Of a stretch of DNA of 64,000 bases, positions 17,659-64,000 are shown piece after piece (within the stretch, counting starts at the first letter, position 1; each line of letters begins with the position of its first letter). The position numbers and the translations under genes are program-made. This DNA comes from Escherichia coli 042 (GTDB lineage Bacteria; Pseudomonadota; Gammaproteobacteria; Enterobacterales; Enterobacteriaceae): assembly GCF_000027125.1 (NCBI RefSeq), contig NC_017626.1. One strand, given 5' to 3'. The notes below the pieces were generated by a model. The model was not told the origin of the DNA. It saw only the letters and a program-made list of their open reading frames with translations, and made no database searches.

Positions 17659-20154
17659 TTACTGGCAAATATAATTTCTACTTTCATCAATCTCTTTACC
17701 GAAGGTGATTGTGCATGAAAGTCCTTGTTGCTTATCAATTGCTACATTAACCGATGGCGGAACTTCATTGGTGCGAATAAATAACTGGCTTCCCTGGCCG
17801 ACAACGCCAATATTATGACCATGGATATCATTGACTTCATAACCAAACGTTAATGGTTGCCCATCCGTTCTTAACGCTTTTATAAACCAGGGCTTGCGCT
17901 GATCGGTATCAAAATTAACCAGTACAACCGCGCCGCGATAAGGTGCGGCAATTTTCCGGTTACCGCGCAATTCTGCTTCGCTATCGCTTTGCGACACATC
18001 CAGCATCAGGTGATTTTCCCGATAAGGTGTCATTCCGTCGTATACCACCACTCCATTACGGTTTGTTGTGCGATATTTTTGCCCATTGACATAAGCATCT
18101 TTAATTCCTGGCGCATTCATCACTGCAAACGTTTCGGAAAGACGGTTCGCCAGATTAACGCCACCCGACCAGGCGACAATGCCCCCTGAAACACTGGCTC
18201 CAGCCTGTCGATAAGTACTCGACTGACTATAACTGCCATTCACCGTTGCCACCGGCGCGTTCCAGGTTAAATTCGCTCCAGCTGTTGTTTCATTTCCCTG
18301 ATGCTGATGACTCAGGTTGACCCCATAGTTAAATTGATCCCGGTTTCCAACGGTTCCCGATAATCCCGTATTATTTGAGGCAAAACCCTGATCATCAAAC
18401 GTCGTTGAGTTAGACATATATATTTGCCGACGAGGCGTCGTAACGTCATCACCCCAATCAAAGGGAATCGATATAAAAATATTAAAACGTTTCTCTTCAT
18501 GATGATTCTCGTCATAAGCCTGGCTTGCCGCGAGGGTATAGCTTATCCGTCGCAGGTTGTTGGAATAACTCAACTGATAATCCTTACTGCTGCCGCTACG
18601 CCCCCAGTAATCTCGCCATAACGTACTTAAGGACACAGAACCCCAGCCTTCTGGCAATGACTGGCTCATATTGGCAGAAAAGCTATTTTTACGGCCAAAA
18701 TCGTTCTGGTAATAATCGGCAATGTCATAGATATCGTTTTCATCACGGCGATAATTATCTTTATTGTTTGCCCAAACGTGATCGTTAAATGTCCGGTAAT
18801 CACGCGACGAATAACGCCAGGCCGCCAGACCAAAACGCGTCGACGTTTGGCTCACAAATTTGTTGTAGGCAATTTGATAACTTTGCCCGTCAAACACATC
18901 GCCGTTGTCTTGTTTACTATGCGACTTCGTGGCATCGACGGAAATGGCACCAATGCGTGTATTCCAGCTAGTCCCCAAAGTGAACGCGTAATAATTATTC
19001 GCGACCATCGATCCGCCATACAGCGTCAATAAGTTATTAAAACCATACTGATAACCCGCCTGGACAAAATCACTTTGTTTGCTCGCCCCTTCAATATGGC
19101 TACGACCCGCCGCAAAATCATATTTCGACACGCCAGGTTGCAGCATATTCGGCACCGCTGCATAAGGCACCAGATAGGTGGTTACCGAACCGTCCGCCTC
19201 TTTCACGCTGACATCAAGATCTGCTCCACCACCGGCCAACTGCAAATCTGTAATCGCAAACGGGCCAGGAGGAACCTCTTTCTGATAAACCACAAAACCG
19301 TTCTGTTCAATAGTTACCAGCGCGTTACTCTGAGCAATCCCCTGCACCCGTGGCGTAAAATTTTGTTTCGAGTTAGGCAACATCTGCATATCACGAAACA
19401 ACCGCACACCGCTGAAGCGAACAGAATCAAAAATATCGCTTGATGTGTACATATCACCCACGCGAAGCGTGCCGAGAAGTTGGGCAAATCCACGTTCCAG
19501 ATACAGGGTATTGCTTTTCCACACCCCTGGATTGTTATTTGTTTTACTGAAACTGGCATCAGAATGCAGTTGCCACCCCAGTAAATTTAACCCGCTGTTA
19601 AAACGTACATATGTACTCTTGTTATTACCCGACGCTTTATAGTCGCTGTAATACTGACTCACATAATAAGAGGTATAAAACGCATTAATACCCCGCTCCC
19701 AGTTTTCCGGTGGAACATAGCCACTTTCCAGTTCTTCCACCCAAGCCTGCGGGACACTGAAATCGAGACGAAAAACCCCGATATCCCAGCTATAGCTCCC
19801 ACCCTGAACAAGTTGCTCAAATGTTAAACATTGCTTACCACTGGCGAAGTTATCGCTATTAATGCCTAACCGCTTGATAACTTCTCTTGATAAACATGTT
19901 TCTTGCGGGTTGTCTTTAACAATGATCTCATATTTCCCGCGCCATTGCTTATTGACATAAATATCGATGTCATACTGCCCCGGCAAGGGTTGATTATCAT
20001 CAAGACGAATATTTGCAACCTGCTGGTCTTTCATTCCACCTATCATAAAATGGGTATCAAAGGTTTCTTCAGCTGCATAAGCTTCAATGCCGAGCAATAA
20101 CGCTACGATTGCTGATGCAAGTGGGGTCATTCTCAACATAGACAGCTCCTGCAA
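17659..20154 (-). CDS. yehB: Outer-membrane fimbrial usher
   Basis: About 830-aa ORF with usher-family features; start may be 15 nt downstream (MLRMTPLAS...). Confidence 0.88.
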   Translation of the reverse strand: MQELSMLRMTPLASAIVALLLGIEAYAAEETFDTHFMIGGMKDQQVANIRLDDNQPLPGQYDIDIYVNKQWRGKYEIIVKDNPQETCLSREVIKRLGINSDNFASGKQCLTFEQLVQGGSYSWDIGVFRLDFSVPQAWVEELESGYVPPENWERGINAFYTSYYVSQYYSDYKASGNNKSTYVRFNSGLNLLGWQLHSDASFSKTNNNPGVWKSNTLYLERGFAQLLGTLRVGDMYTSSDIFDSVRFSGVRLFRDMQMLPNSKQNFTPRVQGIAQSNALVTIEQNGFVVYQKEVPPGPFAITDLQLAGGGADLDVSVKEADGSVTTYLVPYAAVPNMLQPGVSKYDFAAGRSHIEGASKQSDFVQAGYQYGFNNLLTLYGGSMVANNYYAFTLGTSWNTRIGAISVDATKSHSKQDNGDVFDGQSYQIAYNKFVSQTSTRFGLAAWRYSSRDYRTFNDHVWANNKDNYRRDENDIYDIADYYQNDFGRKNSFSANMSQSLPEGWGSVSLSTLWRDYWGRSGSSKDYQLSYSNNLRRISYTLAASQAYDENHHEEKRFNIFISIPFDWGDDVTTPRRQIYMSNSTTFDDQGFASNNTGLSGTVGNRDQFNYGVNLSHQHQGNETTAGANLTWNAPVATVNGSYSQSSTYRQAGASVSGGIVAWSGGVNLANRLSETFAVMNAPGIKDAYVNGQKYRTTNRNGVVVYDGMTPYRENHLMLDVSQSDSEAELRGNRKIAAPYRGAVVLVNFDTDQRKPWFIKALRTDGQPLTFGYEVNDIHGHNIGVVGQGSQLFIRTNEVPPSVNVAIDKQQGLSCTITFGKEIDESRNYICQ

Positions 20155-59612: not shown

Positions 59613-60191
59613 ATGGATCTCAATACACTCATCTCACAATATGGTTATGCCGCGCTGGTGATCGGTAGCCTGGCGGAAGGTGAAACCGTGACTTTGCTGG
59701 GAGGCGTTGCGGCACATCAGGGGCTATTAAAGTTCCCGCTGGTGGTACTTTCTGTGGCGCTTGGCGGCATGATTGGCGACCAGGTGCTTTATCTGTGCGG
59801 GCGGCGCTTTGGCGGCAAGCTATTACGCCGTTTCTCGAAACATCAGGATAAAATTGAGCGGGCGCAGAAACTTATCCAACGCCATCCGTATCTGTTTGTC
59901 ATTGGTACGCGTTTTATGTATGGCTTTAGGGTGATTGGCCCGACGCTGATTGGTGCCAGCCAGCTGCCGCCGAAAATCTTTCTGCCACTGAATATCCTTG
60001 GCGCATTTGCCTGGGCGTTGATTTTTACCACTATCGGTTACGCTGGTGGTCAGGTGATTGCGCCGTGGTTGCACAATCTCGACCAGCATTTGAAGCACTG
60101 GGTCTGGTTGATTCTGGTCGTGGTTCTGGTGGTAGGCGTGCGCTGGTGGCTGAAACGGCGCGGGAAGAAAAAGCCGGATAATCAGGCATAA
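59613..60191 (+). CDS. yohD: DedA-family inner membrane protein
   Basis: 192-aa ORF from MDLNTLISQYGY; the ORF track start is an over-extension. Confidence 0.8.
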   Translation: MDLNTLISQYGYAALVIGSLAEGETVTLLGGVAAHQGLLKFPLVVLSVALGGMIGDQVLYLCGRRFGGKLLRRFSKHQDKIERAQKLIQRHPYLFVIGTRFMYGFRVIGPTLIGASQLPPKIFLPLNILGAFAWALIFTTIGYAGGQVIAPWLHNLDQHLKHWVWLILVVVLVVGVRWWLKRRGKKKPDNQA

Positions 60192-60243
60192 AGCAGTTGC
60201 CACAGATAAGCATTCACGCCACATCCGGCACCGGATGTTCCAT

Positions 60244-60280
60244 GCCTGATGCGACGCTGGCGTGTCTTATCTGGCCTAAC
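60244..60280. repeat. REP element
   Basis: gcctgatgcgacgctggcgtgtcttatctggcctaac matches REP consensus; between convergent yohD and yohF. Confidence 0.7.
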
Positions 60281-61123: not shown

Positions 61124-62560
61124 TCAGCGTTTGTAACCCCCGCCCAACGCACCAGTGAGTTGAATGGAGGCATCCAGCCACTGCCCTTGCAATAACAGGC
61201 CATTGGCCCGCTCGCGAAGCGCCGGGATTCTGGCTTCGCTGACGCGGGAACCGGCAATGATGCCCGCGTTAAAGCGCGCCTGCGCAAGACCTACTACACG
61301 CAAGGCATCGCGCTCAATTTGCGCCTGATGCTGGTTTTTCTCCGCCAGTGTCTGAACCTGACTGGCTGCCCGCGCCACGTCATTCACCGCTTCAACCACC
61401 GCTTTGTTGTAGCTGGCGATAGACAAGTTGCTTTCGGCTTTTGCGATATCGAGGTTGGCGTTAAGACGACCACTATCGAAAATGGGTAGCGTCAGGCCTG
61501 CCGTAACGCCCATTTGCTGCGCGGAATGACGGAACAGATCGCTTAAGTGCAACGCATCCTGTTGCAGGAAGGCCATCAGGTTGATGTCAGGATAAAATGC
61601 CGCTTTTGCCGCATCAATGGTGCTTAGCGATGACTCAACGTACCAGTGCGCCGCCTGCAAATCTGCCCGCCGGGCCAGTAAGGAGTACCCCAGTTCATCA
61701 GGAAGCTGGCTTGCCACTTTCGGCAACGCGACCGGTTTAAGCTTCAGTGACTTTGTCTGGTGATTTGTGAGTGCATTTAACCGTGCCTCAATAATTTTCA
61801 TTTTCCCCGCGACATCGTTGAGCTGCTGCCGGGTTTTGCTGGCATTAATATCGGTTTCCACACCTTCAACTGAAGAAGTAATCCCGTTCTGATATAGCTG
61901 GCGATCGGTGGCGATAATGGTGTTCTGCTCTTTTTCGATTTGCTGTAAGACAGTGTTTAACGCCGCCTGGGTTTGCCACTCCCAGTACAGACGGGCTACG
62001 CTGCCAGCCAGCAATTGGCGGGTTTGCTCGCGTTCCGCCGCCCGTGCTTTAACCGTACCCAGGCGAGCAGTAACCTCCGCCCGATTCTTTCCCCAGATAT
62101 CGAGATGCCAGCCCGCCGTTAAGCCAAAAGTACCGTTGGTGTACCACGGACCGGTCGTACCTGCGGCAGGATCGTTCAGAGCAAACGGCCCCATTAACCC
62201 TTCTGCCGACATTTTTTGCCGCTCCATATCCGCAGAAAAGTCGATCTGCGGACCATCCTGAGTGGCAACTGCCTTCGCCTGGGCTTCAGCCAGCTGAATG
62301 CGCTGTTCAGCCACCTGCATATCCGGTGCGTTCTGTAGTGCATTGTTAATTAATGAAGTGAGTTGATTATCGTGATACTCCAGCCACCATTGGCTGTCTG
62401 GCCAACCATTTTTCAGCGCCGTGGGTAATGCGGTGTCAACTTGTGAAGCGGGCGTTTGCTGGCTTAACGCCTGGCGGGTTTCATGCATAGGCGCACACCC
62501 GGCCAGCATCAGTAACAGCGGAAAACAGGCGATGGCGGGATAAAAGGAATCACGATTCAT
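61124..62560 (-). CDS. mdtQ: Outer-membrane efflux lipoprotein (OMF/NodT family), apparently intact
   Basis: About 478-aa uninterrupted ORF with lipoprotein signal (LLLMLAGC) from MNRDSF; this gene is recalled as a pseudogene in K-12. Confidence 0.75.
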   Translation of the reverse strand: MNRDSFYPAIACFPLLLMLAGCAPMHETRQALSQQTPASQVDTALPTALKNGWPDSQWWLEYHDNQLTSLINNALQNAPDMQVAEQRIQLAEAQAKAVATQDGPQIDFSADMERQKMSAEGLMGPFALNDPAAGTTGPWYTNGTFGLTAGWHLDIWGKNRAEVTARLGTVKARAAEREQTRQLLAGSVARLYWEWQTQAALNTVLQQIEKEQNTIIATDRQLYQNGITSSVEGVETDINASKTRQQLNDVAGKMKIIEARLNALTNHQTKSLKLKPVALPKVASQLPDELGYSLLARRADLQAAHWYVESSLSTIDAAKAAFYPDINLMAFLQQDALHLSDLFRHSAQQMGVTAGLTLPIFDSGRLNANLDIAKAESNLSIASYNKAVVEAVNDVARAASQVQTLAEKNQHQAQIERDALRVVGLAQARFNAGIIAGSRVSEARIPALRERANGLLLQGQWLDASIQLTGALGGGYKR

Positions 62561-62783
62561 GGGGGAATAATCAGGTAAGAAAAGGTGCGCGGAGATTACC
62601 GTGTGTTGCGATATATTTTTTAGTTTCGCGTGGCAATACATCAGTAGCAATAAAACGACATATCCAGAAAAATATACACTAAGTGAATGATATCTTCCGA
62701 TTTATCTTAATCGTTTATGGATAACGGCAAAGGGCTTCGTTTTTTCCTATACTTATTCAGCACTCACAAATAAAGGAACGCCA

Positions 62784-62867
62784 ATGAAAATTATACTCTG
62801 GGCTGTATTGATTATTTTCCTGATTGGGCTACTGGTGGTGACTGGCGTATTTAAGATGATATTTTAA
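62784..62867 (+). CDS. yohP: 27-aa small membrane protein
   Basis: MKIILWAVLIIFLIGLLVVTGVFKMIF with AGGAA SD 7 nt upstream; below the ORF-track size cut-off. Confidence 0.6.
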   Translation: MKIILWAVLIIFLIGLLVVTGVFKMIF

Positions 62868-62939
62868 AATTAATTAATGTCATCAGATCCGAAAATAACG
62901 AGAATATTTCAGTCTCTCATCCTGTTGCGCTCCTGTCAT

Positions 62940-63200
62940 GTGCATTGCTTCATATAATCACTGGCGCAAGGAGCGCGCAGGGGGCGACCAATCGCCGCCG
63001 CCCCCTGCACCCCCGGGCTCTGGCGAACAAAATCGCCGCTGCGCGGTGCCCTCGGCTTATCCCTTACGGCTACCGGGTCGGGCGCGAGGTAACATCCCTG
63101 TAAAACGCGCCCTCAGCCCACATCCATGTGGGCTGCCCCGGCCTTCGGGGAACGCCTCGGCGATTTTGACGCCACCAAACAACCGTGCGGCCTATTGATA
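62940..63200. repeat. GC-rich non-coding block with nested hairpins (unclassified structured element)
   Basis: Local GC visibly far above neighbouring intergenic DNA; hairpins cagggggcg...cgccccctg, cagcccacat-cc-atgtgggctg, ccccggccttcgggg. Confidence 0.4.
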
Positions 63201-63239
63201 AAGAGCTAACACATTGTCAAAAAACATCACTATGGTTTT

Positions 63240-64000
63240 TTAGAGTTTCTCGATATCAATTGCCTGAATAGCCCTTGCAATATCAGGGGAATTATTCAAC
63301 ACCCGAACATGCTGAAATAATTCCGTTGCTTCATCGTATTCTTTACGCAAATAACTCAACCACTGTTTAATCCGCGCAACGTGATATAACCCGGTATCGC
63401 CCTGCTTTTCCAGACGGGTATATTTTTGCAGCAAAGCAACTACCTCCGGCCACGGCATTCGCGGTTCGTTATATTTTACCACCCGGCTCAGGTTGGGAAT
63501 ATTGAGCGCCCCGCGACCAATCATCACTGCGTCACAGCCGCTGATCGCCATGCATTGTTGCGCGCTCTGCCAGTCCCAGATTTCACCGTTGGCAATCACC
63601 GGAATATTCAGCCGCTGGCGAATCTCGCCAATCGCCTGCCAGTCAATATGCTCCGCGCGGTAACCCTGCTCTTTCGTCCGCCCATGCACCACCAGCTCTG
63701 TAGCACCAGCCTGTTGAACCGCATCGGCGATTTCAAATTTCTTCTCACCGCTGTCCCAGCCCAGACGCACTTTTACGCTGACGGGCAAATGCGCCGGTAC
63801 AACTTCACGCATCGCTTTTGCCCCCTGGTAGATGAGTTCAGGATCTTTGAGTAACGTCGCGCCGCCGCCGCTACCGTTAACCGTTTTCGACGGGCAGCCG
63901 CAATTGAGATCCACACCCCAGGAACCTAACTCGACCGCACGGGCGGCATTCTCTGCCAGCCATTGTGGGAACTGACTTAACAACTGCACGCGCACCAGCG
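63240..64000 (-). CDS. dusC: tRNA-dihydrouridine synthase C, 3' portion (5' end beyond window)
   Basis: TIM-barrel Dus family sequence; ORF runs off the right edge of the window. Confidence 0.85.

Follow-up and report, generated by a model that had tools for sequence, protein, structure and literature searches.

The window analysed here is a stretch of 64,000 nucleotides from Escherichia coli 042 (NC_017626.1), and coordinates refer to it unless K-12 is named. Close to its end a non-coding block of 273 bp with 64.5% GC (62924-63196) lies inside the AT-rich spacer between yohP (62784-62867, plus strand) and the 3' end of dusC (minus strand, stop codon at 63240-63242), the right end of the unit being 43 bp from the dusC stop. 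The GC fraction, taken in segments of 100 nt, is 0.62-0.69 across 62950-63199 vs 0.32-0.34 in the flanking spacer, which bears out the GC-rich block that the original prediction had placed in the yohP-dusC interval; the block is real, but its earlier limits, 62940-63200, had to give way to a slightly larger unit. The edges of this unit were set at about 62923-63206 by alignment of paralogues, and at 62924-63196 by the two distances published by Li et al. An open reading frame of 86 aa (62938-63198) in the open reading frame list covers the block. It was rejected as a coding sequence, since homologous copies vary from 194 to 198 nt in single-nucleotide steps and the variation across its codon positions is nearly flat (0.72/0.69/0.86), in keeping with the earlier view that no convincing reading frame exists here. 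A chance feature and an assembly artefact, the latter a concern raised at the outset, are both ruled out by the presence of the repeat in 5425 of 5426 complete E. coli genomes.

Two further observations were made in the surroundings. The mdtQ gene (61124-62650, minus strand) is an intact open reading frame of 508 codons in the window; it is annotated as intact in 118UI and as a pseudogene in K-12. On the plus strand an Rfam match to AgvB, the anti-GcvB sRNA, straddles the left end of the repeat (62890-62950), and with 22.9 bits, a gathering threshold of 56 and E = 0.18 it is probably a chance match.

The block is the repeat of E. coli that has already been described as TRIP1c and as RRS-dusC. 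The element was listed as early as 1999 (Rudd 1999) and was characterised in 2023-2024. Three TRIP1 repeats are known in K-12 (Li et al. 2024, PMC10888264): TRIP1a at aqpZ-ybjE; TRIP1b at putP-ycdN, a partial copy without an internal 125 bp; and TRIP1c, a unit of 273 bp located 43 bp downstream of the yohI (dusC) stop and 363 bp upstream of the yohG (mdtQ) start. TRIP1d at alx-sstT and TRIP1e at copA-ybaP were added by the same authors, who found 62-65% GC and predicted a stable 'double-Y' RNA fold for all types, and who reported that TRIP1 repeats mediate chromosomal rearrangements and that TRIP1c is polymorphic in its orientation (2952 forward, 2789 reverse). "Replication Risk Sequence" (RRS) is the name that Pham et al. 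gave to the dusC and lysO copies (Pham et al. 2024, PMC10592627; also PMC11194060).

The identity of the block with this element is supported by every property that could be compared. The unit is 98.9% identical to K-12 2229122-2229394 (273 bp, 3 mismatches, no gaps), an interval which satisfies both published distances (43 bp to the dusC stop, 363 bp to the mdtQ start), and the identity is 99.0% over 301 nt to K-12 2229113-2229413. The neighbours and the spacing are those of K-12, with yohP on the plus strand, dusC on the minus strand and the same 43 bp to the dusC stop, and the block has the orientation of the K-12 dusC copy. The second full-length copy of K-12, at aqpZ-lysO, is inverted relative to the dusC copy, in agreement with the RRS paper. 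The published G-quadruplex (G4) motif GGGGGTGCAGGGGGCGGCGG was found as an exact match at 62995-63014 on the minus strand, which is the G-rich strand. Thus sequence, locus (the dusC/yohI side of the yohP-dusC spacer), length, GC content, G4 motif and aqpZ-lysO paralogue all match, with no difference as to identity, and the published traits of 62-65% GC, about 222-273 bp and extensive secondary structure reappear in the block as 64.5%, 273 bp and nine covarying helices.

The element itself is therefore already known, but the published accounts are confined to E. coli (Li et al.) or put the emphasis on the G4 (Pham et al.). The words Rfam, CsrA and TwoAYGGAY are absent from both texts (PMC10592627 and PMC10888264), the word hairpin from that of Pham et al. 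(PMC10592627), and covariation and RRS from that of Li et al. (PMC10888264). What is new here compared with both papers, and reported in neither, is the multi-helix fold with its covariation across genera, the wobble bias towards the minus strand and the resemblance to TwoAYGGAY.

In order to describe the fold, 112 copies from about 15 enterobacterial genera were aligned, the pattern used for their collection requiring the loop CAUGGAUG; the structure model combines RNAalifold, our own pair scan and the inspection of representative rows. It consists of nine covarying helices: P0, P1, the rod P2-P4-P8-P5, the side hairpin P3 and the terminal hairpins P6 and P7. Standard pairs occupy 88.0% of the cells in the 112 copies vs 36-45% when the partners are slid by 1-3 columns. 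Both sides change in 44 of the 64 pairs, which amounts to 883 cells vs 274 in shuffles, and the covariation score of 0.335 (0.140 in shuffles) was reached by none of 500 shuffled alignments. The prediction that the block is structured was thus strongly confirmed.

Seen from the left end, the first hairpin is P0 (62927-62976, minus strand; stem 62927-34/62969-76, loop of about 35 nt), which lies outside the 112-copy alignment; 107 of 111 copies have it, and its stem shows at least four compensatory variants: GCGCTCCT/AGGAGCGC, GCGCTCCC/GGGAGCGC, CCGTTCAC/GTGAACGG and CCGTTCGC/GCGAACGG. It is followed by P1 (62977-63008, minus strand), whose GC-rich stem is an exact inverted repeat of 10 bp (62977-86/62999-63008). 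This is the first of the predicted hairpins, cagggggcg/cgccccctg, and it is kept by compensatory changes in the 112 homologues: five of its outer pairs covary, for example as GC/AU/CG and AU/CG/UA. The G4 motif at 62995-63014 overlaps the arm of P1 that lies 3' on the plus strand.

The core domain (63021-63174, minus strand) was delimited by covariation, by our own scan and by the weak TwoAYGGAY match treated below. Its rod, all on the minus strand, is built of P2 (63021-25/63170-74 and 63028-35/63161-68), P4 (63050-55/63155-60, with a conserved UC/UC mismatch), P8 (63061-64/63147-50) and P5 (63073-77/63137-41), together 26 pairs that enclose P6 and P7; the side hairpin P3 (63036-39/63043-46, minus strand) branches from it, and a long-range inverted repeat of 16 nt connects 63028-43 with 63153-68. 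P6 (63080-63112, minus strand) has an outer stem at 63080-86/63106-12 and an inner one at 63092-94/63099-101, and its stem covaries. P7 (63114-63135, minus strand; stem 63114-22/63127-35) is an exact inverted repeat in which seven of the nine pairs change on both sides; it contains the second predicted hairpin, cagcccacat/atgtgggctg, an exact inverted repeat of 10 bp (63114-23/63126-35) that compensatory changes have also kept in the 112 homologues. The third one, ccccg/cgggg (63136-40/63146-50), found no support, the family pairing 63137-41 with 63073-77 and 63147-50 with 63061-64.

No part of the element is better conserved than the loops of the two terminal hairpins and their distance from each other. 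Read on the minus strand, the P7 loop is ACAUGGAUGU and the P6 loop is ACAGGGAUGU; within the family the P7 loop is R-CAUGGAUG-Y in 102 of 112 copies, the P6 loop is CA-N-GGA-Y-G in about 108 of 112, and the two are always 28-30 nt apart. Since the collection pattern required the P7 loop, only the conservation of the P6 loop is an independent result.

The next question was which strand carries the selected fold. Where pairs alternate between Watson-Crick types related by transition, mid-helix G.U intermediates occupy about 85 cells when the minus strand is read and about 6 when the plus strand is read, with counts of 30 and 0, for example, at columns 171/184, and of 22 and 1 at columns 166/190. 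In 108 of 110 copies the minus strand folds more stably than the plus strand (mean -120.7 vs -108.7 kcal/mol), and in the block it is also the G-rich strand. Because the wobble intermediates, the folding energy and the G-richness all favour it, selection seems to act on the minus strand in its single-stranded form, to which RNA and single-stranded DNA answer alike. The strand indicated by the wobble pairs is the same as the one implicated by the experiments of Pham et al.

The copies form a dispersed family, as a search for additional copies established: a query of 281 nt matched at 18,856 places, spread over 5425 of the 5426 complete E. coli genomes. The median genome has 3 such places and no genome more than 10; aqpZ-lysO and alx-sstT are other loci of the family in this species. 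One K. pneumoniae chromosome contains 13 places, and K. aerogenes and Citrobacter also carry the family. An exact-pattern scan of a collection with one genome per species returned 104 stretches, nearly all from Enterobacteriaceae (Escherichia, Citrobacter, Enterobacter, Klebsiella, Raoultella, Leclercia, Silvania, Pseudescherichia, Pseudocitrobacter, Kluyvera and Atlantibacter). Copies on MAGs or contigs labelled Desulfacinum, Proteobacteria, Sporobacter and Bacillus (L023, L035, L072, L085) are of E. coli or Klebsiella type with 83-94% identity and lie on short or low-coverage contigs; they are most likely enterobacterial contamination of the assemblies. The loci differ between genera and the copy number varies widely, many copies being present in some genomes; therefore a location at two symmetric sites is not a property of the family.

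The arrangement of the copies is also variable. Inverted alleles were confirmed at dusC in strain M24 (L116, 89% identical) and at aqpZ-lysO in an O157:H7 strain (L118). In both cases the spacer on either side of the inverted element is also unrelated to that of the other allele, so that these alleles look like replacements of the whole spacer and not like inversions in place. At alx-sstT 1659 genomes carry the element, and the others have one of two unrelated spacers with a Box C-like repeat. In K-12 this spacer (L115 5547-5944; see also L120) holds, in place of TRIP1d, another GC-rich repeat with the pairs CCCTCTCCC/GGGAGAGGG and GGGGTGAGGG/CCCTCACCCC, which we take to be of the Box C kind from its appearance; the third haplotype has a shorter version of it.

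Several other arrangements were noticed among the homologues. A copy of a divergent subfamily stands in the yegH-asmA spacer of E. coli SCPM-O-B-8794 (L032 8777-9011; also L073 and L098); it is REP-flanked and about 85% identical over 177 nt, with the stem GTGAACG/CGTTCAC replacing AGGAGCGC/GCGCTCCT, and its locus, at which K-12 has no copy, is outside the five TRIP1 types of Li et al. Many loci of Citrobacter and Atlantibacter hold two diverged copies that belong to different subfamilies, share about 70% identity and face each other, with an AT-rich spacer of 60-100 bp between them (for example L024 597-886 on the plus and 955-1215 on the minus strand; likewise L010, L014, L030, L031, L066, L078, L080, L081, L083, L086 and L087). 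Klebsiella copies (L102-L107, K. pneumoniae ATCC 13883) are usually bracketed on both sides by the same REP/PU in direct orientation, and one Klebsiella locus has two tandem copies 437 bp apart (L006 2501-2715 and 2938-3152). At aqpZ-lysO on a chromosomal piece filed as a plasmid (L005 4994-5125), the two-hairpin core, about 63019-63135 of the window, is removed by an internal deletion whose end points are at the short direct repeat CCCCGG(N)CT; this copy resembles TRIP1b with its missing internal 125 bp.

The only experimentally shown activity of the element is at the level of DNA, as a trigger of replication gaps in K-12, and it was demonstrated by others (PMC10592627). [quoted passage not shown] Wherever the RRS was placed in that orientation, gaps arose that reached up to 2 kb and were loaded with SSB and RecA, and no gaps were formed by the inverted RRS (PMC10592627). 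[quoted passage not shown] The topological relief valve at the boundary of the Ter macrodomain, which these authors suggested, is their hypothesis and not a demonstrated mechanism (PMC10592627).

On these grounds we consider it likely that the block in E. coli 042 is the dusC copy of TRIP1 / RRS in the functional sense as well, in which the folded G-rich template of the lagging strand stalls the polymerase and leaves a post-replication gap. The G-rich minus strand, stated to be the lagging-strand template in K-12, would have the same position here according to the identical local gene order. After the replisome has unwound the duplex, the minus strand could fold, forming the G-quadruplex at 62995-63014 as proposed by Pham et al. 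and the nine-helix fold indicated by the comparative data. The folded template would stop the lagging-strand polymerase, which would restart downstream, and a transient gap of up to 2 kb might be left behind and loaded with SSB and RecA; according to the authors' proposal this gap could act as a topological relief valve at the Ter macrodomain boundary. The copy of E. coli 042 would thereby behave as the K-12 copy does.

The part played by the G4 in this mechanism deserves a separate consideration. The exact G4 motif was found in 21 of 112 family members, and the mean G4Hunter score in the motif region is 2.29 in the E. coli/Klebsiella type and 1.34 elsewhere; therefore the G4 alone cannot explain the conservation within the family. 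Furthermore, hairpin P1 competes with the G4 for the same G-run, and P1 covaries. We infer that the conserved hairpin fold may contribute to the block of the polymerase beside or instead of the G4. The natural orientation is not fixed, which a gap function dependent on orientation must accommodate, and the variable copy number and loci fit poorly with a role tied to two symmetric positions. The pilE G-quadruplex of Neisseria gonorrhoeae was cited by Pham et al. as the single other bacterial sequence in which a G4 on a template strand triggers gaps (PMC10592627); its sequence is unrelated, and it is a short G4 for antigenic variation and not a large conserved fold.

The fold itself leads to another family. 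The only structural match of the core in Rfam is TwoAYGGAY (RF01731), which extends over its full length on the minus strand (63179 to 63021) with 28.5 bits. The scan suggested at the start thus returned a full-length match, but one below the gathering threshold of 43, and since this threshold is not reached, membership in the family is not established. Two paralogues scored 29.9 and 31.5 bits, and a C. freundii copy (L101 7597-7665) 42.5 bits with E = 0.0019. The architectural likeness is clear: in each, two neighbouring hairpins bear AUGGAU and AGGGAY loops, arranged in the same order, and a closing helix and a long outer stem are present; both occur in multiple copies per genome without a fixed gene association. 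The P7 loop AUGGAU fits AYGGAY, and the P6 loop (AGGGAU/AGGGAC) has a G in place of Y. The members in Psychromonas also show AGGGAC and, present in multiple copies, have the same pair of loops, ACAUGGAUGU coming first and ACAGGGACGU second; the closing P1 stem of TwoAYGGAY is often very long (Weinberg et al. 2010), a trait to which the rod P2-P4-P8-P5 with its 26 pairs corresponds. On the other side, the enterobacterial element is GC-rich and has the additional hairpins P0 and P1, the side hairpin P3 and the G4 motif, and TwoAYGGAY is a presumed RNA of unknown function while the RRS has a demonstrated activity at the DNA level. That the RRS/TRIP1 core is the enterobacterial branch of TwoAYGGAY, in the Csr-Rsm clan, is therefore put forward as a tentative suggestion, which we regard as possible but rather doubtful.

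This likeness brings up the alternative that the element works also, or instead, as an RNA: as the minus-strand 3' UTR of dusC it would adopt a TwoAYGGAY-type fold, in which a single CsrA dimer would be bound by the two CANGGAYG loops at their distance of 28-30 nt, the RNA then serving as local decoy or mRNA-stability element. The loops of P6 and P7 presumably fit the CsrA/RsmE consensus, and they belong, with their spacing, to the best conserved part of the element. CsrB and CsrC share their Rfam clan with TwoAYGGAY, and their GGA motifs stand in hairpin loops of CAGGAUG type; they differ in having many sites and their own promoters and terminators and in dominating the CsrA CLIP data. In the element the sites number two or three, and neither expression nor CsrA cross-linking was seen. 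The RNA alternative can also draw on the weak full-length TwoAYGGAY match on the minus strand of every copy tested, on the loop pair shared in order with the multi-copy Psychromonas members, on the CsrA binding proposed for TwoAYGGAY by RMfam and on the stable double-Y RNA predicted for TRIP1 (PMC10888264). Moreover, the half-life of the dusC mRNA fell from 3.25 to 1.74 min in a csrA mutant, a change flagged by the authors as not significant (Potts et al. 2017).

Most of the evidence, however, stands against such an RNA. No promoter-like or terminator-like site was found within the element, the sole promoter-like hit (62883-62856) being left of the unit, and there is no room for a promoter of its own on the 5' side of the conserved unit because the K. 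pneumoniae paralogues lose their likeness about 20 nt outside the first helix. No 3' ends appear in the Term-seq data of Adams et al. in K-12 2229000-2229599, and dusC, asmA and ybjE carry a 'No' under CsrA CLIP-seq as well as under three earlier lists of targets, by assignment at gene level (Potts et al. 2017, Supplementary Data 2). Between tandem genes 15 copies are sense and 14 antisense, an orientation that is random relative to transcription; the window copy is below the Rfam gathering threshold; and the RRS phenotypes were reproduced with DNA templates in vitro (PMC10592627). A Rho-termination site antisense to yegH was considered as evidence of transcription and dropped, K-12 having no copy in yegH-asmA. 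The evidence for the RNA/CsrA reading is thus negative or weak, with no positive sign of expression or binding found, and we hold a function as RNA to be unlikely.

Even less probable is that the element is a selfish or neutral dispersed repeat of the REP, ERIC or MITE type, tolerated downstream of genes, whose fold serves its own spread through a single-stranded intermediate, or recombination. Its variable copy number and the polymorphism of its presence and orientation at fixed loci would suit such a repeat, as would the greater likeness of copies within a genome than between genera, the enrichment between convergent genes (37 copies) with depletion between divergent ones (3), the frequent adjacency of REP/PU sequences, the rearrangements reported by Li et al. 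(PMC10888264) and the existence of natural internal deletions (TRIP1b; L005 at aqpZ-lysO). However, terminal inverted repeats, target-site duplications and clean empty sites were not found: the ends GTTGCGCTCC and GTGCGGCCTATT are not inverted repeats, the flanks of the paralogues share nothing, and yohP-dusC, aqpZ-lysO and alx-sstT gave whole-spacer allele replacements only. A MITE or transposon was consequently rejected. The comparison of the yohP-dusC interval across strains revealed variation as alternative spacers and not as insertion and clean empty site; and from the readings offered originally 'repeat' and 'structured' can be kept, 'MITE-like' has to be given up, and a structured RNA is possible at the level given above. 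No autonomous partner gene was detected either: when the ORFs within 1.5 kb of about 120 copies were clustered, only housekeeping neighbours and spurious GC-rich ORFs recurred, with no transposase among them. A phage origin was rejected, there being no match in the phage collection, and the 'plasmid' matches proved to be chromosomal pieces filed as plasmids. The failure of Pham et al. to delete both copies without a compensating amplification (PMC10592627) also speaks against a neutral repeat.

A relation to REP had been denied from the beginning, and correctly: the block gives no naRNA4/REP match, and true REPs nearby do match. One REP/BIME between yohD and yohF (60172-60276) gives a sub-threshold match to naRNA4 (CssrE) of 44.6 bits vs a gathering threshold of 59.5. 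REP/BIME and the element are both GC-rich, intergenic, palindromic and dispersed, they are often adjacent, and BIME-2 is implicated in chromosome topology; but they have no sequence relation, REPs being hairpins of about 35 bp in hundreds of copies and the element a multi-branched unit of 273 bp in 1-13 copies.

Finally, a functional plus strand, that is an RNA whose C-rich UCC(C) loops pair with the Shine-Dalgarno GGA of target mRNAs, is extremely improbable and was dropped as an interim reading after the counts of mid-helix intermediates (about 85 to 6 for the minus strand) and the folding energies: the excess of plus-strand G.U pairs (213) over A.C pairs (110) across all cells comes for 177 of the 213 from three columns (63094/63099, 63073/63141 and alignment columns 43/58), of which two are at a loop edge or helix end and the third is an alignment register shift, the plus strand is rich in C and its fold is the less stable one in 108 of 110 copies, no promoter was found for it, and the Rfam match is on the minus strand.

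We return, then, to the replication-gap element as the preferred reading of the block. Very few bacterial sequences are reported to programme a gap in replication; this element is among them, and it is also said to be conditionally essential. The present comparison adds that the nine-helix fold, and especially its two hairpins with GGA loops, appears to be under selection on the G-rich strand across many genera, the G4 motif being limited to certain lineages. Through the likeness to TwoAYGGAY, two bodies of literature without mutual citation are brought together. If common descent or a common function lies behind this likeness, TwoAYGGAY would be a single-stranded DNA element of replication gaps, present also in Psychromonas, Clostridiales and gut metagenomes, or else the RRS phenotypes would involve a transcript that binds CsrA; and in either case, because the G4 motif is retained by only 21 of the 112 members, it would be the dual-hairpin fold and not the G-quadruplex that is conserved as the agent. 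The question of fold versus G4 and the TwoAYGGAY link are thus parts of the main interest that this element still holds.
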